A stretch of 20,000 nt of DNA from an uncultured virus (IMG/VR IMGVR_UViG_2061766007_002377) (taxonomy: Duplodnaviria; Heunggongvirae; Uroviricota; Caudoviricetes), in the IMG/VR virus record IMGVR_UViG_2061766007_002377; one strand, written 5' to 3'. Below the pieces are notes generated by a model. It ran no database searches. It was not told where the DNA came from and saw only the letters and a program-made list of their open reading frames with translations. The position numbers and the translations under genes are program-made. Positions 1-18,898 of the stretch are shown here, one piece after another. Every line of letters begins with the position of its first letter. Position 1 is the stretch's first letter.

Positions 1-3
1 CTT

Positions 4-1695
4 GTGCAAGTTCTTGATATGTTTGAGAAGATGGGCGGAGTTGATTCTCGGAACTATGACAGGGACCAGATACTCAAACAGGCCGCCGAAAGTCTTGCCG
101 CAATAGTTCAGCAGCAGAAAGACCAATCCCAAATTGAGAGCAATCTTGGAACAATCAGGTCAATGGTTCAGGGCGCAGATAATTTTATTGAACTGCTTGC
201 ATCCATAACTGGCGCAGGTGGCGGTATAAACGCCCAGAACTTGTCTTGGATGGAGACCCTGAAGTACAACATCAACGGCAAAGAGATTGTCCAGAAGAAA
301 ATTGCAGAATATATCAACGAAAACATAACCGGAGCAATGGAAAGTATAAGCAGTGCAGACCTTGCATCTTGGAGTGACGCAATCTCCGAAGCTCTTGGTG
401 AATCCGACATGGATGCAATGCTCAAGGGCAGAGCCGAATCGTTCAGACAATTCTATGAAGCGTTGCACAACTACTTCAGCAAGGACGGCGTTCTGTCCGA
501 GGATGAAATCTCAAGACTGGGTGACATCCGCATTGCCTATCAGGAAGCCAAGAAAGCCGCAGAAGATTACATGGCATCCCTTCAGGCGCAGGCTTCTCTG
601 CAAAGTTACGGAGACAGACTGAGAACAAGCGCACTTGTGGCAACAGGCATGGATGCTTCCGAGGCAGGTGTGCGTGTTTCATGGGCCAATGAACTTGCGG
701 AAATCGGCAAGCTCTTTAAAGAACTTGGCACAAACACCATTGAAATCAACGGGCAAATGTATAAGCAAAAAGACCTGATTGCCCTTGTGAACGAGCAGTA
801 CAACGAGCAGATAGACAAAATCAAAGAGGCGAACAAGGCAATGACCTCATGGGAAAATGCACTGGCGCAGGTCAAAGACTCTCCCCTCTTTAAGTCCATA
901 GACCAGTTCAAAACAGACTTTGCAGCCGGAAAGGAATGGGCCGCAGGAAAAGGCGCAACAGAAGGCGCGGCAAATGCAGCGGGTGTTGGCGCAGGCATTG
1001 CCGGCTTCCTTGCCACCCTTGCGACACAGACTGAGACATTCCAGAAGTTTATGGACATTCTACAGCCCGCCATAGAAACCATGAACAATTTTCTCAAGCC
1101 GTTACAGCCTGCAATCGAGGCTATTGGCGAGGCAATCAGTTATATGGTTTATGCCATATTGAAGCCTTTATGGGATTCCAAGGTTATTCAAATTATCGCC
1201 ACAGCCCTTCTGACGATTGGCAAAGTCGTTGAAACCATAGCGGCCGCAGTAACCAATGTAGGCCGTGGAATAGGCAACTTCTTCCGTGGTCTGTTTGGCA
1301 TGGAAAAGAAGGCGTATGAAGACATCGGTGCAATATGGGATGACTACTATACAACGCTTGACCAGATTTGGGGCGCAACATTTCAGATTGCCAAGAACAC
1401 TGATCCGAGCAATGACGAGCGTTTGAAAGCCTATCAGGAGATGTATCAAAAACAGATGATAACAGAGTCCGAGTTCTCTGCACTTCTGAGAGGTATTCAG
1501 GGGGCAAGATACGACAGCGTGAGAACATCAGGCTCTTACGCATGGAACAACGGCAGAGCCGGAACAACAAACGTCTATTACGGAGATTTGAAATTCACAA
1601 TCAACGGCACGAATCTTTCAGCCGACCAAATAGCTGATGCGGTTGCCAGAAAAATTGAGTTCAACAACCGCACAGGACATTATTCATACGCATAA
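4..1695 (+). CDS. Tape measure protein, C-terminal part (5' end probably outside the window)
   Basis: Long Ala/Gln/Glu-rich helical ORF with amphipathic repeats (ILQPAIETMNNFLKPLQPAIEAIG) and a TMP-like end (GDLKFTINGTNLSADQIADAVARKI). It lies directly upstream of tail genes. Confidence 0.75.
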   Translation: MQVLDMFEKMGGVDSRNYDRDQILKQAAESLAAIVQQQKDQSQIESNLGTIRSMVQGADNFIELLASITGAGGGINAQNLSWMETLKYNINGKEIVQKKIAEYINENITGAMESISSADLASWSDAISEALGESDMDAMLKGRAESFRQFYEALHNYFSKDGVLSEDEISRLGDIRIAYQEAKKAAEDYMASLQAQASLQSYGDRLRTSALVATGMDASEAGVRVSWANELAEIGKLFKELGTNTIEINGQMYKQKDLIALVNEQYNEQIDKIKEANKAMTSWENALAQVKDSPLFKSIDQFKTDFAAGKEWAAGKGATEGAANAAGVGAGIAGFLATLATQTETFQKFMDILQPAIETMNNFLKPLQPAIEAIGEAISYMVYAILKPLWDSKVIQIIATALLTIGKVVETIAAAVTNVGRGIGNFFRGLFGMEKKAYEDIGAIWDDYYTTLDQIWGATFQIAKNTDPSNDERLKAYQEMYQKQMITESEFSALLRGIQGARYDSVRTSGSYAWNNGRAGTTNVYYGDLKFTINGTNLSADQIADAVARKIEFNNRTGHYSYA

Positions 1696-1707: not shown

Positions 1708-3158
1708 ATGGCATATACATATTCACTTGTTGTAAACGGAACAGACTACAATCTTGCAGAGTTTGTAGATTCTTCAACACTGTCTATTGTAAAGCCTTTC
1801 TGCTCCAAATCCAAAAAGAGCGGCAAAGGAACCATGAGCGTGACAATCAAAGGTGCGGCAAACAAAACTGCCTATCGCTCTTTCATGCAAGACCTTCTGA
1901 TTCATGCCACTCAGACAAAGCAGGTCAATGACTGTCCTTTGCGTGTCAGTTGTGACGGGACTGTTGTGTTTTCCGGCTACCTTGATAAATCCTGCATAGA
2001 CATCAAGAGCAAGAAGATTCCCGAATGGCTTGTTTTGGCAGGAATTGACAAAAGCCATCTTCTTGACCGCAAAATCCGCATAAACCGCTACTGGGAAAAT
2101 CAGAGCAGAAACACTATTATCAGCGACCTCTTTTCCGCCCTTTCAACAGAGTGCGGCTTGTCGCTTTCCGTTGCCTCAAGCGAGATTCCGAATACAGAAG
2201 TGGTAGGCAACTTCTGCGTAACCGAAAGCAAGGAACAAACCTACAGAGACGTAATTGATACCATTATTTTTGAGGCAATCGGTTACGTTCTTTTCTTTGA
2301 CCCCGCCTCAGATGCGTTCAGAATCAAGAGCATACCTACAAGCGTATCAGGTCTTTCCCCCAGGGAAGTAACATTCCTTATCGAGAACGGCCTTGTGTCA
2401 CGCAGTGTTATCTATGACAATGACGGCATACTTCTTTCCTATCCTACAATCGTGGAAAGGGCAAATACCAACGTGTATGCCGAGAACATAAACCTTTCTT
2501 TTGACGAGAACAACCGTGTTATCGGAGATACCGTCATTCCCGGAGAATACTTCCCTCACGATGCAGATGTGAAGGAAATCTATCAGACCTTCCGCCTTGC
2601 AGACAGACCGTATGTGTCCGGTGAAAGCCGTGTTGAGAATCAGGACCTTTCCCTGTTGTATGCAAAGAATGTCACAGTCAGCATACAGGCAAACCCGGCT
2701 CTGACTCTTGCCCCTGCCCTTCCCAATGTTCACTGGGACGGGACCGTTGAAATCTATCCTGATAAGGCAAGGGCAATCTATGTCAACAATGCCGTGGGAG
2801 AGAACAGCAACGTCACTGTTTTTGGTTACACCGCAACGGCAGTCTACATTGACTACTACAACAAAATCACCTACCCCAAGGCCTGTGCCAATCCGCAGGA
2901 ATACAAGGTGCAAACAATCACCGACCCAAACAAGGCCAAGGCTTTTGCAAACTGGCTGTACAACTCAAACAACTACGGCGCATCCACAAGCCAGTGGAGC
3001 GAGTACAACAGCAGTGCATATCTGGGAGAAGTGGTAAACGTAATTCACAAGGACACAGGCGTACAAATGCCTCATGTCATTGTGCAGATAACGGATGAGA
3101 GCATAGACGGCTCAAGAGTCCGCAAGAGCAACATTGTTGCCATATCCATTTACTCATG
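1708..3158 (+). CDS. Putative tail tip / baseplate hub protein; 3' end lost in the N gap
   Basis: GAGGT RBS before the ATG; beta-rich ORF between the TMP and the fibre; runs into Ns at 3159-3244. Confidence 0.5.
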
Positions 3159-3244
3159 NNNNNNNNNNNNNNNNNNNNNNNNNNNNNNNNNNNNNNNNNN
3201 NNNNNNNNNNNNNNNNNNNNNNNNNNNNNNNNNNNNNNNNNNNN

Positions 3245-6200
3245 CACATCCAAGGATGAGCTTATAGGCGGCACATGGCTTGATGAACTGCCTTCCACAT
3301 ACACAGGCTATGTCTGGTACAGAACAAAATACATCTACTCCAACGGAACCGTCACTTACTCGCAGTACGCTCACTATCTGACCACGGCAGAGATAGACGC
3401 TCCGTGGGTGCTGACTACGTTCTACGCCGTCTCTTCATCTAATGACTGGGAACAGGCAGACACAACACAGCCCCCGGTGCAGGGCGTGACATACTATGAG
3501 AGACTTCTTGACGGCTCTCTGAAAGAGGCAGATGTGTCCGATGGTTGGGTCACGGGCATCTCATATTATTTCATCCCGGACTGCACAGCATGGGGCAATT
3601 CTATTCCTTCTTCATGGAGACATGGGTTGTACGTCTGGACAAGGGACAATATCAACTACACGCTCAACGGCACAACGCAGCGCATGACTCCCGTGTTTTC
3701 GGCCTCTGCCACATCAGATGCAGAGAAAACCTGCAAGTTTGTAGTCACTCCGTCTTCCTACACATGGGCCAAGAACAAGAGAGCCGTGGATTCTGATTCC
3801 GTCATTGTCACATTCGGCTATGAGATTCAGGGTTACGGAGAGAGCGTGGAGCCTTTGATTACCGTTCCTTCCGGGTACGATATAGAGACAGACAACAACT
3901 CCATTAAGTTCAACAGTGCAATAACCTTGGACAGAATGGAAATATTTGTCAGCCTTGCACAGTTCCCGGACGTGACCCCTGTGAAAATAGTTCTGGAGAG
4001 CGTTGACGTCACGGACGAGCCTACATACCTTGGAATACTGAGTGCAATGCCGAGTGCGGACAATACCCGGTTTTCACGTTTCCTTGCAGGAGACCACTTT
4101 GTTGCCAACGGCATCACAGGTAAGACAGACCTCATGCCCTATGTATATGACGGTGTTTCTTGGGTTGCACCGAGCAGAAACGGCGTGTACGGCCCTATGG
4201 CCTACATCCAGATTCTGTACAACTGTGTCCATGACATATTCTCCAACGCACAGGACGTATATACGCTCTGCGGTACAGGGGCAACGGCACAGGAAGGGGT
4301 TTCATACTATCAGCAGATAGACGGAGTGTGGACTGGCGTTGTCGTGCGTACAGGAGAAGATGTATCTACCCTGTACACCAAGGGAACCAACGTGCCTTCT
4401 CAGGTGTTGGAATACTACAACTATCAGGCGGAGATTATCTCTGACTATGTAGCATCCAATGACATTCAGCTTGTCGAGCAGACTGACCCGGTAACAGGCA
4501 AGACCAAGGTAGGCAAGATAAGAAGCGCAGGCTATGAGAAGGGAACGGTCAAGAAGCTCATTGAAACAGCACAGGGCGGTCAGTCTCTTGCCTCTTACAA
4601 GCAGGGATTCTACGGAGACACTGACGGAAACTTTGAGGCCTTTGACGCATGGCTGTACAGAGCCAACATCTACAATGCGAACATTGTAGGAGAACTGCGC
4701 AATGACCTCTTTTTCACAAACCTTGAAGCCAAGGTCGGAGCGACATACACGCAAAGTACACTGACCAATGAATCATGGTCGGGAACCAAAGCTCTTGAGT
4801 CTGTCCGCACTGCTATCGGAAGCGGTAACGTGGAAAAGGTACTGAGCATGGGTGCGCACTATCCCACTCAGGGCAATCAGTACAGCCTTGGAATGTTGGT
4901 GGACAATCCGGCAAGGGCAGTAGAAGCGTCTGTCAATGCAGGGGCAACCTTCACATCTCCCATATTTACGGCCTTTACTGCAAGCCTTCCTTTGTTCAAC
5001 TCCGGCAACGTGCCTGTAAGCGGTGGAGATATCTACTACGGCAGTGTGCTGACCAACCGCAAGAGGTGGGCTATCTCATCCCTGTATGAGAATACCGATA
5101 TTACCGAGAACGTAATCAATGCAAGTGGTATCTCTTGGAACGGCACCAACCTTGGTTTTGCAAGGGTGACTAATCCTGAGGCAACGGCTGTTAACGGATA
5201 TTCTACGAGCCACAGTTCTGGTAACGACAGTCGTTATGACGATTCATGGAGTTTTACTATTCCTAATGGATTCAGAAATGCAACTATGAATTTCTCAGGA
5301 AATAGAAAGCAGGGCCGTCAAACTTCATGGTTCCAGACTTTATATCGTCAGGGTTCAATGAGAATTTCTATAAATGGGGCAAGTTCATATTATATTGGTG
5401 CAACGGAAAACGGTAGTGTTCCGTTTAGTAGCTCTCTCACAGTAAACGCAGGAGATACTATTACTGTTGCATGGGGCAATGCCGCAGGTAGAACGTCTAC
5501 AACAGACGAGGTATGGGGAAGTATCTCTATCTCTATTGCTGCTCAGACCTTTGCCGCTCAGGGAATGGATACAACGGGTTTCTACACCTTCACAACAACC
5601 ACACAGAACGGATATACCCGTGTTGACACAGCCATCAACCGCAACAACCATCCTATCTACTATCAGGAGAACAACACTGACACTTACTACGAAAAGGCAA
5701 CGGTAACGCTTTCCTCTCCCTCATGGAGCAGTGAGAATCATCTTCTGAGCGCAACGGTGAATTATACCTATGAGAAGTACCAGACAGGCTTGAACCTTCT
5801 TAACTCCACCGGAGAGAGACAGCAGACCGTCACCACAGGAGCGCACCCTGTCTCTGAATACTTTGACGTTACCTATGCCGGGACAGTGCGCTACAAGTCC
5901 GACACGGCACAGCACTATTGGCACATTAACAGTGCCGGAATACTGACAAGAAGTGCAACACAAGAAGAACCCGCAAAACAGATTGACAGTGCAAAGATAT
6001 TTGCCATTGACTCCTGTACGGCGTACTACAAACTCTTTGGGGACAACTCAAGGCGCAACATCACAGGCGTTACCGGAGTTATCTGGACAAATACTTCAAT
6101 CATCTTTGAAACAAGTAACGGCAACGTGATTGTCACAACCTCTGACTGGGTGGAAGAGTTCTATGTGAATCTTGTCTCGCAGTCCCAGAGAAGAGGAAAC

Positions 6201-7094
6201 TTTGCGGACACGATTCTGCCGATAATGGGAGAAGAAGACAGGAAAAAGCAAGACCCGGTTAAGGAAATAAATCTCGGCTCTGAGGAAAATCGTTTTGATG
6301 AAGGGTATCTAAAAAGGTTAGGCTCAGGTAATGTTCCCACGGAGATTGTTTATACCGAGAATCTCGGACAACTTGTCTCAGTTCCAGGCTCTTCTATTGC
6401 ATCCTTTGAGCCAAGCCTTGTTTACTATGAGTATGACTCTGCCAAGGATGAATATATTGCCACAACGGACAGCACTCCCAACAGCAGCAAGACCTACTAC
6501 AATGTTTATTCAGTGACTGATGCCTATGTTAAGAATCAGTGGACAGTGACCCCGGAAAAGATTTCCAAGAACGCAGGTGGTGGAAGAATCCCCGGCACTG
6601 TGTTCTGGTATGCAGGGTCAGCAAACGACATTCCTGAAGGAACGCTTTTGTGCAACGGCGCAACTGTGCTCATTGCGGACTATCAAAACCTCTTTGACGC
6701 AATAGGTACAACTTTCGGGGGAAATGGCACTACCAACTTCAAACTTCCTGACTTCTTCCATGCAACTGACCCGGACAACAGTACGGTCAGTACAGGCTTG
6801 TTCATCAGGGCCACAGACGGCAGTTCCTTGGGTGCTGTGGGTAGTAAACAGTATGATGCGATAAGAAACATTACTGGAGACTTCTCCCACCGTACAGACA
6901 ATGAGAGCATTCCTTTTGCAGGTGCTAATGGTGCATTTGCCCTTGACAACTATATATCGCACACCAATACCACAGGTATAGAATCAGGATATAACCGTTA
7001 TTTCAAAGTCACTTTCAACGCTTCAAGAATAGTCAGAACCTCTGTAGATAATCGGCCATACAATATGTCCTTATTACCCCTAATATGCTATTAA
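3245..7094 (+). CDS. Tail fibre / receptor-binding protein with tail-collar domain and exchangeable C-terminal tip; true start hidden by the N gap
   Basis: Open frame from the gap to TAA 7094. It has fibre-type repeats (GGTWLDELPSTYTGYVWYRTKYIYSNG; TTDSTPNSSKTYY), a collar motif PGTVFWYAG...EGTLLCNG...LFDAIGTTFGGNGTTNFKLPD (about 6588-6752) and the typical GSKQYDAIRNITG...FNASRIVRT...NRPYN fibre end. Confidence 0.88.
6862..6878 (+). repeat. Recombination site S1 (expression site inside the fibre gene)
   Basis: TAAGAAACATTACTGGA, read in frame as (I)RNITG. Confidence 0.92.
6864..7094 (+). other. Tip cassette 1 (currently expressed, 76 aa)
   Basis: RNITGDFSHRTDNESIPF...FNASRIVRTSVDNRPYNMSLLPLICY*, in frame with the fibre gene. 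Confidence 0.92.
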
Positions 7095-7334
7095 GGGGAG
7101 CATTGAAATATTATACGGGTGAATATCAAGACTATCTGCATGAGTTGACATAGGGTTGTCTGTAAAATTGCCATTATTGGCATTAGAAAATATTGTTTCC
7201 ATGTTTATATATCCGTAATTACCCGAACCAAACAAATAATTATAGGCATTCGTAATACTATGTTTCCACGAACCTATGCTTGTTGCACTTTGGCGATAAA
7301 CAAACAAACCAGTTGCACTTCCAGTAATGTTTCT
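7080..7334 (-). other. Silent tip cassette 2 (84 aa)
   Basis: RNITGSATGLFVYRQS...NPMSTHADSLDIHPYNISMLPLIAY*; open from S2 to TAG, no start codon before the site. Confidence 0.92.
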
Positions 7335-7336
7335 TA
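7320..7336 (-). repeat. Recombination site S2
   Basis: Exact reverse complement TCCAGTAATGTTTCTTA; its TAA is the stop of cassette 3. Confidence 0.92.
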
Positions 7337-7585
7337 ATATGCGATTAAAGGTAACAGCCCAATATTATATGGCCTATTTTCTAAGGCCGTGCGTACAATG
7401 CGAGACGCATCCATAACTATCCAGTTTAAGTGATTGGAAGAAGATGAAAAACGGTCATTTGTAGAATAAAAAGCCGTGTCTTGATGTATGGCGTACAAGG
7501 CTCCATCCCAGTTGCCGTTGTGCATGATTATACCACCACCAGAGACATCATCCCATGACGTGCGTATTTGTCCAGTAATGTTTCT
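7334..7585 (-). other. Silent tip cassette 3 (83 aa)
   Basis: RNITGQIRTSWDDVSGGG...MDASRIVRTALENRPYNIGLLPLIAY*. Confidence 0.92.
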
Positions 7586-7587
7586 TA
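7571..7587 (-). repeat. Recombination site S3
   Basis: Exact copy on the - strand; its TAA is the stop of the chaperone gene. Confidence 0.92.
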
Positions 7588-8256
7588 TGACTCTTCAATT
7601 TCTGAGAGATAATCGAATGGACTTTCTTCTTCACAGTTGTCCTCAACGGTTTCTGTTCGGAGGTGGTCCAGAGCCTCTTCTCCATACTCTGCCACAATTT
7701 GTGCTTTCAATTCATTGGCCTGTGCTTCCCACAGATTAAGGTTTGGTCTTTCCTGTGCAAGCCTCTGGAGTTCTGATTTGTAGAAGGCTTCCTTTTCTGG
7801 ATCAGAAGCATATCCGTTCTCAAACTCATAAAGTCTCCGGGCGTAATAGTCTGTGTCCTCAAGTTCTTTCTTGAGAGTTTCGTACTGCTCCTCAAGCTCT
7901 ACAACCTGATTGCAGATTTCCGGCTTGTCCATCTTCTCCCATTCTCTGTCGGCAGGCTTGTCTCCGAGGGTGGTCATATATTCCTCTTCAGCCCACCAGA
8001 ACTTCTCAGGGTTGTAGAAAGGCTTACCGCCTGAGTAGGTTCCTGTTTCGTCAAGGTGCTTGCGGTAGTCCGGTTTGATTACCCACTTTTCTCCGTCCCA
8101 ACAAACAGCCTCAAACTCACCCTTTTCAGGTGGTTCCATCCATGTGCAGTTTGCAGGGAGAAGAAACTCTCCTTCATGTTTGGGGTTTTCCTGTGCGTAT
8201 GCGGTTCCTGTGTATTCTCCGTTCTGTGCGTATCTGTAACAAGTTTTAATGGTCAT
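7585..8256 (-). CDS. Tail fibre assembly (Tfa-like) chaperone with coiled-coil C-terminal extension
   Basis: The N-terminus YRYAQNGEYTG...ENPKHEGEFLLPANCTWMEPP...WDGEKWVIKPDYRK matches the Tfa-like pattern; GAGGT RBS upstream; located among the fibre cassettes. Confidence 0.75.
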   Translation of the reverse strand: MTIKTCYRYAQNGEYTGTAYAQENPKHEGEFLLPANCTWMEPPEKGEFEAVCWDGEKWVIKPDYRKHLDETGTYSGGKPFYNPEKFWWAEEEYMTTLGDKPADREWEKMDKPEICNQVVELEEQYETLKKELEDTDYYARRLYEFENGYASDPEKEAFYKSELQRLAQERPNLNLWEAQANELKAQIVAEYGEEALDHLRTETVEDNCEEESPFDYLSEIEES

Positions 8257-8275
8257 GTTTGGTACCTCTAAATTG

Positions 8276-8281
8276 ATTATA
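8276..8281 (-). promoter_or_regulatory. Possible -10 box for the chaperone gene
   Basis: Perfect TATAAT on the - strand about 20 nt upstream of the ATG in an AT-rich spacer; no convincing -35 at 17 bp. Confidence 0.35.
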
Positions 8282-8314
8282 CAATTACTATTAAGATAAC
8301 TCTATATGCAAGGA

Positions 8315-8331
8315 TAAGAAACATTACTGGA
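8315..8331 (+). repeat. Recombination site S4
   Basis: Exact TAAGAAACATTACTGGA. Confidence 0.92.
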
Positions 8332-8532
8332 ACAATCAGGACATACCATGATACTTCATCAAATTATGCTTTTCCGACTGGAGCCTTGTATGCTGCATCA
8401 GGACAAACCAAAGGAAACAGTAATGCTTGGAATACATCATGGGATATTGGACTCGATGCTTCAAGAGTTGTGCCAACAGGGACAGACAACCATCCCTATA
8501 ATATGAAGTTATTACCCCTAATTGTCTATTAA
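8317..8532 (+). other. Silent tip cassette 4 (71 aa; not in the ORF track)
   Basis: Manual translation: RNITGTIRTYHDTSSNYAFPTGALYAASGQTKGNSNAWNTSWDIGLDASRVVPTGTDNHPYNMKLLPLIVY*. Confidence 0.92.
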
Positions 8533-8534
8533 AG

Positions 8535-8551
8535 TAAGAAACATTAGCGGT
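8535..8551 (+). repeat. Recombination site S5 (variant)
   Basis: TAAGAAACATTAGCGGT: first 12 nt identical, 14/17 overall. Confidence 0.85.
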
Positions 8552-8755
8552 TCATTCTATGGTGGTGCTAGGCGAAACGGCAATTCTAGTGACTATTTAG
8601 GGGCATTCACAGGAGCAACAAATTCTGGCGTTAAACTGACAACAGGTAGCAATGCCGATTTGGCAAAGTTTCTCTTTAACGCTTCTGGCTCTGTGCGTAC
8701 AGCCTCAGACAACCGTCCCTATAACATCTCATTGCTCCCCGTAATAAGTTACTAA
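8537..8755 (+). other. Silent tip cassette 5 (72 aa)
   Basis: RNISGSFYGGARRNG...FNASGSVRTASDNRPYNISLLPVISY*. Confidence 0.9.
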
Positions 8756-8769
8756 GAAACATTACTGGA
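8753..8769 (+). repeat. Recombination site S6
   Basis: Exact copy; its TAA is the stop of cassette 5. Confidence 0.92.
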
Positions 8770-8982
8770 GAGTGTGAATTTTCTTTTGTTTGGCCTTCAT
8801 TTGTTGGAGAACCTAATAGCGCAATTTATCTAATAGAAAGAGCTGTAGATAAGACAGCAGCTTCTGGCTCTGCCCTTGGGACTCGAAATGTGAGCATTGT
8901 TTTTAATGCCTCTCGTACAACAAGCACATCACCCGAAAACCGTCCATATAACATTTCTATGCTTCCTCTTATTCACTATTAA
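8755..8982 (+). other. Silent tip cassette 6 (75 aa; not in the ORF track)
   Basis: Manual translation: RNITGECEFSFVWPSFVGEPNSAIYLIERAVDKTAASGSALGTRNVSIVFNASRTTSTSPENRPYNISMLPLIHY*. Confidence 0.92.
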
Positions 8983-8996
8983 GAAACATTACTGGT
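8980..8996 (+). repeat. Recombination site S7
   Basis: TAAGAAACATTACTGGT (16/17); its TAA is the stop of cassette 6. Confidence 0.92.
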
Positions 8997-9251
8997 GTAA
9001 TGAATAAGACCAAGGGTGACAATATGTACCTTAACGCCCAAACTTACGAAATATCAACTAATGGCGTTTTATATATCTCGTCTTCACAATACGATACATG
9101 GGCATCAGGTACTGGCGGTGGAACAGTTGTGAAAGGAATTGGTATCAATGCAAACGCAGGAAGTACATCAAATAACCCAATGTCAGGCCACGCAGTTGGC
9201 CCAGATGTCCGTCCTTATAACATCTCAATGCTCCCGTTAATATGCTATTAA
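8982..9251 (+). other. Silent tip cassette 7 (89 aa)
   Basis: RNITGVMNKTKGDNMY...NPMSGHAVGPDVRPYNISMLPLICY*. Confidence 0.92.
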
Positions 9252-9491
9252 GGGCAACATCTTGATATTATACGGGTGGATGTCGCTTCCCGAAGCATGA
9301 CGATACATTGGGTTGCCATAAGACGAGGTATCAGCATTAGCATTAAGGTAAAGATATCTTCCAGCATGGTTTCCTGCGTTACTTGCAGCTGCCCCGTATG
9401 ATGCTGATGTATAGAAAGCCCCATTAAATCCGGTAGAAGAACCTGCTGCCTCCATAATAATCCATTTCTCTACACTTCCAGTAATGTTTCT
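9237..9491 (-). other. Silent tip cassette 8 (84 aa)
   Basis: RNITGSVEKWIIMEAAG...NPMYRHASGSDIHPYNIKMLPLIAY*. Confidence 0.92.
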
Positions 9492-9493
9492 TA
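9477..9493 (-). repeat. Recombination site S8 (distal boundary)
   Basis: Exact copy on the - strand, about 60 bp from the recombinase stop codon. Confidence 0.92.
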
Positions 9494-9552
9494 TCACCCA
9501 TATCTGTTTAACAAGCGAATCCTTATTAAACAAACTGCTGTCTTTTGTTTAA

Positions 9553-10329
9553 TCACCAATCCACCAACCTACTCATCCTCTTTGACACACTCTGCACAGT
9601 GACCCTGAGATACCTCAAAGTGGTCTGGATATTTCTGTGGCCTAAGAGGTCTTTCACCAAATAGATGTCCCGTGTCTTGGCATAAACCTTCCGTGCAAAG
9701 TACCGCCTCAGCTCATGCGGAGAAACCTTTGCCTTAATCCTTAACTTCTTCTGCAAGGTCTTGAGCTTGACCATGATGTAATTGTCCGGCCACAGCATGA
9801 TTTTCTCTGTGTTCTGACGGCCTTTCAATAGGGGAAGTACATCCTGTCTCATCATAAGCGGAAACCATACAGTCCTTGATTTGGTGCCTTTTCCGACAAT
9901 CTCTTTTCTGGTGCAGTTCCGCAGGTCTCCGACAGTCACCTGATATGACTCCGTGATACGCAGTCCTGTGCCGGAGAGAAGTCTGATTGCAACAAGCCAA
10001 TCTGTTTGCTCGGTGTTTGCTAGAAAGGTCAGTATCTTGCCGTATTCCTTATCCGTCAGCACGTTCTCTGCAAAGATAGGCTCCTGAATACGCACCAAGG
10101 GAATCTCAACATCAAGACCTTTGTATTTGGCGTACTTTCTGATTGCGTTCAGCCGGAGATTGACAGTCATGGGCTTATGGACCTGAAGGCACATCTGACG
10201 GTACAGATAGACATTCTCCGTTGTGACTTCCGGGAAGAAAGAGAAGTAATGAATCATTGATGAGGTGTAGGCTTGCACGGTGGACTCTGACAGTGCTTTG
10301 CTCTGAAGGTAGGTGGGGAAATCTGTCAT
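9553..10329 (-). CDS. Tyrosine recombinase (Xer/integrase family), probable shufflon invertase, 258 aa
   Basis: Full catalytic set: TGLRITE (R), GKGTKSR (K), HELRR (HxxR), LLGH (H), TTLRY (Y). N-terminal core-binding region LSESTVQAY...TVNLRLNAIRKY. AGGAG RBS before ATG 10329. Confidence 0.95.
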   Translation of the reverse strand: MTDFPTYLQSKALSESTVQAYTSSMIHYFSFFPEVTTENVYLYRQMCLQVHKPMTVNLRLNAIRKYAKYKGLDVEIPLVRIQEPIFAENVLTDKEYGKILTFLANTEQTDWLVAIRLLSGTGLRITESYQVTVGDLRNCTRKEIVGKGTKSRTVWFPLMMRQDVLPLLKGRQNTEKIMLWPDNYIMVKLKTLQKKLRIKAKVSPHELRRYFARKVYAKTRDIYLVKDLLGHRNIQTTLRYLRVTVQSVSKRMSRLVDW

Positions 10330-18594: not shown

Positions 18595-18898
18595 CTTGCC
18601 TTTGCCTTGCTTCCGACAAACAAGCCTTTGTCTGTCTGTATCATCTCTGATATGTCCTTGACCGCCTGCATACCTACAAGCTGCGGAAAACGCTCTCCTG
18701 TGTCACGGATCGTGATAAGGCTGTTGTTGAACAGGACATAGCCTACCTTGTGTCCCTGCGCCCAGAAAGTCTTGTTTCCGTCTGCGGTNNNNNNNNNNGC
18801 GGATCGTGATAAGACTGCCGTTGAAAAGAACGTAGCCTACCTTGTGTCCCTGCGCCCAGAAAGTCTTGTTTCCGTCTGCGGTNNNNNNNNNNAGTCAT
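18579..18898 (-). CDS. Hypothetical protein broken by assembly gaps (not in the ORF track)
   Basis: GGAGG RBS and ATG at 18898; after the gaps it reads TADGNKTFWAQGHKVGYVLFNNSLITIRDTGERFPQ...AREARA* with an ATGA overlap at 18579-18582. Confidence 0.55.

Follow-up and report, generated by a model that had tools for sequence, protein, structure and literature searches.

A tail-fibre shufflon of an uncultured phage with stop codons at the edge of its recombination sites

We analysed a stretch of 20,000 nucleotides (the window), the final 20 kb of the 71.9-kb virus record IMGVR_UViG_2061766007_002377. In this region several genes end exactly where a repeated 17-mer begins. Does one short sequence serve at once as crossover site, coding sequence and translation stop, and why do the stop codons lie on the site? 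The original prediction held that the 17-mer combines all three uses, so that any rearrangement leaves each gene terminated and the next cassette out of frame. We find that eight alternative tips are swapped onto one tail-fibre gene by inversion. What is seen is a densely packed version of a switch of known type and not a new mechanism, and the idea of a designed triple-use 17-mer as a new principle does not hold.

The array and its sites

The 17-mer is present in eight copies between positions 6862 and 9493, five on the plus and three on the minus strand, that is at least three sites in both orientations as in a shufflon. By chance 0.08 copies are expected, and none of 200 shuffled sequences reached eight. 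A search of the complete 71.9-kb record for further copies with up to three mismatches gave none; two stretches have four mismatches. The features of the region are listed below with window coordinates and strand.

3156..6863, +, tail-fibre gene, constant part (PF07484 tail collar, E 7e-17; phrog_19618)
6862..6878, +, S1, expression site; coding, I-R-N-I-T-G; joints 6859/8313 and 6861/7589
6864..7094, +, cassette 1, 76 aa, the tip used in the window isomer (phrog_523 tail collar fibre, E 9e-4)
7080..7334, −, cassette 2, 84 aa; 15-nt tail-to-tail overlap with cassette 1
7320..7336, −, S2; TAA (7336-7334) is the stop of cassette 3
7334..7585, −, cassette 3, 83 aa
7571..7587, −, S3; TAA (7587-7585) is the stop of the chaperone-like gene; joint 6861/7589 in runs X3 and X4
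7585..8256, −, chaperone-like gene for tail-fibre assembly, 223 aa (phrog_105 tail fibre assembly, E 9e-8)
8315..8331, +, S4; no gene upstream terminates there; joints 6859/8313 and 8330/9477
8317..8532, +, cassette 4, 71 aa; fused to the constant gene in run X3
8535..8551, +, S5; three mismatches (positions 13, 14 and 17); joint 8534/9493
8537..8755, +, cassette 5, 72 aa
8753..8769, +, S6; TAA (8753-8755) is the stop of cassette 5
8755..8982, +, cassette 6, 75 aa
8980..8996, +, S7; one mismatch; TAA (8980-8982) is the stop of cassette 6
8982..9251, +, cassette 7, 89 aa
9237..9491, −, cassette 8, 84 aa; 15-nt tail-to-tail overlap with cassette 7
9477..9493, −, S8, site on the recombinase side, separated by 59 nt from the recombinase stop upstream of it; joints 8330/9477 and 8534/9493
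9553..10329, −, tyrosine recombinase, 258 aa from ATG (PF00589, E 8e-18; weak PF02899)

The tail-fibre reading frame comprises 1312 aa up to position 7094, with a start that is uncertain owing to a run of N. Its tail-collar domain directly precedes S1, and its last 174 aa, DAIRNITG included, match the solved short tail fibre 9cuy (E 3e-6). The bases of S1 are thus read as I-R-N-I-T-G within this frame, as had been proposed. S1 lies inside the constant gene and the remaining sites open the same frame into C-terminal cassettes which lack a start. The eight cassettes are 35-46% identical to cassette 1, share 12 invariant columns and have both ends in common; Pfam matched none of them. Cassettes 1, 2, 7 and 8 end tail-to-tail and not at sites. 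At these ends (7080-7094 and 9237-9251) 15-nt near-palindromes encode the last four residues and the stop on both strands.

At base level the predicted stop assignments are exact: the first three bases of S2, S6 and S7 are the stops of cassettes 3, 5 and 6, the TAA of S3 ends the chaperone-like gene, and S5 (from 8535) follows the stop of cassette 4 (8530-8532) after a gap of 2 nt. TAA opens all eight sites but is a stop codon in only four of them (S2, S3, S6 and S7), or in four of the six sites which have an upstream gene on the same strand. GA precedes the TAA at S1, S4 and S8. The left flanks of S1 and S8 (6845-6878 and 9477-9510) form a 34-nt inverted repeat with 79% identity, and S8 looks as if it had been derived from a copy of the expression site.

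The chaperone-like gene sits on an invertible segment between the back-to-back sites S3 and S4. Compared with 11 of 12 aligned homologs it carries about 22 extra, acidic C-terminal residues (7585-7653, minus strand), the last of which abuts the TAA of S3; the gene may have lost its stop and been rescued by the site. On this segment (7585-8314) the single chaperone gene opposes the tail operon in the window isomer and in half of all isomers. Expression of the chaperone may vary with the isomer or rely on a promoter of its own; scans for promoters and terminators gave chance level only.

The recombinase next to S8 has a core-binding and a catalytic domain only and no arm-binding domain. Its residues R124, H205, R208, H231 and Y240 are invariant in 21 aligned sequences, so that the catalytic residues of the adjacent enzyme are intact. 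It is likely the invertase of the array. The record encodes two other PF00589 proteins, both longer integrases and outside the array. Similar repeat-like stretches (G000:C1:16194-16210 and 39524-39540) each lie near one of the longer integrases and are possibly the own sites of these enzymes. Further downstream in the window, two tandem 93-nt copies (18706-18892) lie beside runs of N and may be an assembly artefact.

Are the stored cassettes silent because the next frame is wrong, as originally suggested? In the window each of the five junctions that lie no more than 5 nt from a stop is indeed out of frame. In-frame starts within the first 20 codons of the cassettes have weak ribosome-binding scores (−2.1 to −4.0), compared with −6.5 to −7.1 for clear genes; cassette 3 is an exception with an ATG at codon 21 and a score of −6.2. 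Judged from these scores, the stored cassettes are probably silent for want of a good start and not because of the frame, and cassette 3 may escape this silence. We also considered programmed read-through in the window and rejected it since no slippery heptamer precedes any site and no −1 frameshift sequence is found at any junction.

Rearranged joints and the position of the crossover

Rearranged forms were sought in four of the 21 listed sequencing runs, all of them as contigs and with alignment at 85% likeness, a threshold at which joints may stem from other organisms or from repeats; depth in the RNA runs is contig-level and gives no information on expression. We found five joints within the array, four of which fall within the repeat and share 12-19 letters. 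These four, S1/S4, S1/S3, S4/S8 and S5/S8, were found in three of the four runs (X3, X4 and X5), which belong to three other studies, and they bear out the proposal that the crossover lies inside the repeat. The fifth joint (8996/9257 in X5) shares no letters; it probably comes from a related phage with a different cassette and was set aside. Run X1, the probable source of the window, contains the window order only, on one contig covering 6047-9922, and no rearranged joint. As the rearranged joints come from other populations, switching inside one population was not observed.

By inversions between opposed sites alone the array can adopt 13,440 isomers, and any cassette reaches S1 in at most two steps. 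The three joints of X3 fit one isomer which is four inversions away from the window (24 of the 13,440 isomers). Because they fit an inversion isomer, the joint between sites in direct orientation needs no deletion, and the X3 joints are compatible with inversion alone. The presumed invertase, with its very short asymmetric sites, bears on the question how enzymes of this type avoid deletions.

Could the array be frozen and the joints be assembly artefacts caused by the repeats? The lack of a rearranged joint in the probable source run and the use of contigs at 85% likeness would fit such a reading. We nevertheless consider it extremely improbable. In the joined pieces the cassettes show only 0-3 mismatches to the window, the S1/S3 joint (6861/7589) recurs in X3 and X4 from separate studies, the catalytic residues of the recombinase are kept and the joints are consistent with a complete inversion isomer. 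The array is a rearranging shufflon.

Where within the 17-mer do the strands exchange? The S5/S8 joint (8534/9493) shares 12 letters and combines the left flank of S5 with the right end of S8. Since S5 and S8 differ at positions 13, 14 and 17 and the right end comes from S8, positions 13-17 move together with the cassette. This shows that in the window phage the crossover takes place within positions 1-12. The eight window sites are identical at positions 1-3 and so give no means of mapping the left limit in this phage. For the window we infer it from homologous loci, whose recombinases are about 36-38% identical to the window enzyme. In genome G013 one cassette start, identical in 77 of 77 nucleotides from position 4 onwards, occurs in two contexts: preceded by A at position 3 within the tail-fibre gene, which gives an Arg codon, and preceded by T in storage, which gives TGA. 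The exchange there must consequently lie to the right of position 3. Likewise, loci L084 and L192 have A at position 3 of the expression site and T at several storage sites, giving TGA. Positions 1-3 vary within six of the seven homologous loci with at least five sites.

Taken together, the crossover would map to about positions 4-12 of the 17-mer. Tyrosine recombinases have spacers of 6-8 bp, with which this bracket agrees. For Rci a spacer of 7 bp is given in the consulted part of PMC11852207. The overlap of stop and site thereby acts as a natural marker, which, with no experiment, narrows the crossover down to some 8-9 bases. The crossover lies within the repeat, which at S1 is coding sequence, and stops touch the repeat here and in the homologs. 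The repeat is not an indivisible triple-use unit, however: positions 13-17 go with the cassette, and in the homologs positions 1-3 stay with the left flank.

Related arrays and the origin of the overlap

Related loci were retrieved with an alignment query built from 21 recombinases; a query with the single recombinase found no related loci among viral or metagenome contigs, and a class-wide search added only more distant recombinases. Among the 20 regions that were fetched, 12 with window-type sites were counted, three have other repeats (L191, L200 and L201) and five have none; locus L208 has one site and was left out of the counts. The homolog set comprises 14 loci from nine genomes of the family of Ca. 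Ornithospirochaeta and one metagenome contig, which are not independent of each other. The location of these arrays suggests that the host of the phage may be a spirochaete. There are 80 homologous sites (four of them reclassified by hand), and 67 have an upstream gene on the same strand. The sites were picked on positions 4-11; invariance at these positions is partly by construction and was not used as evidence.

Viral sequences gave less. The viral loci L203 and L204, which have chaperone homologs, contain no array with a window-type core (open reading frames were examined in L203). A scan of viral contigs for a 16-mer of the site gave 39 single matches and no array; in two of the 39 the 16-mer occurs once as plain coding sequence, in unrelated tail fibres with the same tip motif. 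A degenerate pattern for the cassette end had one match, which is unrelated.

In all 67 homologous junctions the upstream stop starts between position −10 and position 3, and in 56 of them it starts at positions 1-3. Its form varies: TAA at position 1 (11 cases), TGA at position 1 (3), TAG at position 2 (5) and TGA at position 3 (37). The remaining 11 stops do not overlap and lie at −1 to −10. The overlap as such is thus conserved as predicted, but not as a TAA. The two largest arrays contribute 32 of the 67 junctions; without these, 24 of 35 junctions overlap, 11 of them with TAA, and eight are in frame. In 11 of 13 homologous loci the stop of the recombinase gene overlaps the first site, which is not the case in the window. 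All 45 sites whose core starts with GA show the overlap and so do 11 of the 22 starting with GG. No gene terminates with the TAG at positions 11-13 that 19 of 79 homologous sites offer. From these comparisons, the overlap of stop and site is a family trait with a variable form.

The largest array (L184:70-4946 together with L205:65-78) has at least 21 sites, all with an in-frame TGA; the expression site, on the other contig, reads AGA there, a difference of one base between storage and expression. Transposase-like reading frames interrupt the array of L186 (8415-8990 and 9927-10550), and the recombinase of L192 is frameshifted. Locus L041 (3800-7360) encodes a recombinase 53% identical to that of the window. 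The array it serves is of another kind: its sites are symmetric, with a 6-bp centre between 9-bp inverted arms, cassettes lie to either side, and there seem to be two constant genes.

We suggest the following origin of the layout. A tyrosine recombinase would recombine inverted copies of an asymmetric site that is embedded in the codons for D-A-I-R-N-I-T-G. The part to the right of the crossover, that is the rest of the site and the cassette, would move, and the left part would remain with the upstream gene. The stored cassettes, which lack a start, would be expressed only on fusion at S1, and the exchange of tips would alter the host range. In a tightly packed genome the spacer between gene and site would have been shortened until only bases indispensable to one or the other were left, and the stops would thus have come to lie at the left edge. 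The packed unit could subsequently have been copied along with each cassette. The other genes of the phage are tightly packed, since 21 of the 58 gaps under 150 nt are overlaps. In the homologs positions 1-3 vary and remain with the left flank; the stop is therefore most likely a flank that touches the core and not part of the crossover. Being made of the left flank and of core bases which are invariant within a locus, the stop is unchanged by the exchange, and the overlap is tolerated and not needed. It is true that every isomer keeps its genes terminated, as had been claimed, but a stop anywhere left of the crossover remains attached to its gene and the overlap is unnecessary for this. Gaps between stop and site are tolerated, 2 nt at S5 and up to 10 nt in the homologs. 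We infer trimming as the cause of the overlap and regard this origin, with subsequent copying of the unit, as probable. Copying of one ancestral unit does not account, however, for three unrelated types of genes (cassette, chaperone and recombinase) having this edge as their common end.

The main competing explanation gives the TAA of this phage a function within the site, as spacer or preferred contact; the TAA would derive from the Ile-Arg codons of S1 and have attracted the upstream stops. The TAA may belong to what the window recombinase reads: it opens all eight window sites, of which four are not stops, as well as all five sites of locus L196, of which two are not stops, and it is present at all five expression sites of the homolog stop tally. 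The run-on of the chaperone to the TAA of S3 would fit, and so would the symmetric site of L041, whose 6-nt centre aligns with window positions 1-6. A required TAA is hard to reconcile, however, with the variation of positions 1-3 in six of seven multi-site homologs and with the AAA at the expression site of G013. Moreover, in 37 homologous sites position 3 is a T, whose exchange would place a stop inside the tail-fibre gene. We therefore judge this explanation unlikely. Selection of the overlap for translational control, with stop and frame shift blocking read-through or re-initiation into stored tips that are potential poisons of fibre assembly, appears highly improbable to us. The five out-of-frame junctions of the window and the absence of slippery heptamers agree with it, but 39 of the 67 homologous junctions are in frame (21 of 21 in L184), so that the frame shift, seen in the window, is not required in the family. 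A stop a few bases upstream would serve equally well, and 11 of 67 stops do lie at −1 to −10.

Returning to trimming, the invertase itself might do it by recombining a true site with a pseudo-site which shares only the first core bases (G or GA). The enzyme would read mainly the right side of the site, and stop codons supply exactly G or GA. Cuts further upstream would kill the gene; cassettes, chaperones and, in 11 of 13 homologous loci, the recombinase gene would thus have been welded to sites at their stops. We consider such a role of the enzyme rather doubtful. If it does trim, new tips could be captured by the same route. In some arrays a single base at position 3, A or T, distinguishes the expression site from a storage site.

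Comparison with known inversion systems

Closest in organization are the Rin systems of Bifidobacterium (PMC6109161) and Eggerthella (PMC8778435) prophages. Their target is a phage gene for receptor binding whose N-terminus is constant and whose C-termini are stored; a short armless tyrosine recombinase adjoins the array, and a short asymmetric repeat stands ahead of each cassette. By domain content the 258-aa window enzyme likewise is an armless tyrosine recombinase, which would act on a receptor-binding gene. The rix site (11 bp in PMC6109161, 8 bp in PMC8778435) differs, as printed, from the window site, and the Rin tips are TP901-1-like or H-lectin whereas the window tip is of the tail-collar DAIRNITG type. 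The window array further includes an invertible chaperone gene, and its relatives are found in the family of Ca. Ornithospirochaeta. In both Rin papers a site directly follows the end or stop of the gene; in the consulted parts they describe no stop overlapping the site, and their supplements may show such overlaps.

The R64/IncI1 shufflon (Rci, sfx, pilV) also uses a tyrosine recombinase for the exchange of C-terminal cassettes by inversion at many sites (PMC11852207). Its sfx site is asymmetric, the core and right arm being conserved and the left arm variable, and the per-position counts give the same picture here. The window enzyme has no significant BLASTP match to Rci (E 0.38) and, with 258 aa compared with 384 aa, no room for the extra C-terminal domain of Rci. 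The target of R64 is a pilus adhesin and not a tail fibre. None of the seven sites of R64 (NC_005014) overlaps a stop, and at its sole tandem junction the stop lies about 30 nt upstream. We assign the array to neither Rin nor R64, since its site is unlike rix, a significant match to Rci is lacking and R64 shows no overlap of stop and site.

In the Min system of p15B and P1-like phage-plasmids, tail-fibre tips are stacked head to tail behind crossover sites, but according to the consulted part of PMC6109161 the enzyme is a serine invertase with longer sites of its own. The enzyme adjacent to the window array is of the PF00589 tyrosine type and not a serine-family invertase as in Min, Cin or Gin. 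More similar in setting is the shufflon of BV01-like phages (PMC13596623, a preprint), which combines a gut-phage tail fibre, a recombinase, a short directional motif and several tips with activity in reads. It has three two-headed cassettes and another motif, and the part of the preprint consulted does not describe an overlap of stop and site. In a survey of programmed inversions, genes for phage tails and for tail assembly are listed among the enriched targets or neighbours (PMC9881135); the term 'stop codon' is absent from its main text.

A literature search, mostly of listings, found no paper on tyrosine-invertase tail-fibre shufflons of this family, which is probably undescribed so far. 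The locus thus adds a family of such shufflons from animal-gut phages, with related arrays, the largest of 21 or more sites, in genomes of one spirochaete family. With 258 aa, very short asymmetric sites and no Rci-type tail, the invertase could be a compact tool for DNA shuffling. The related recombinases of L191, L200 and L201 are accompanied by other repeats and other tip families, and some of the stops there touch the site or lie close to it.
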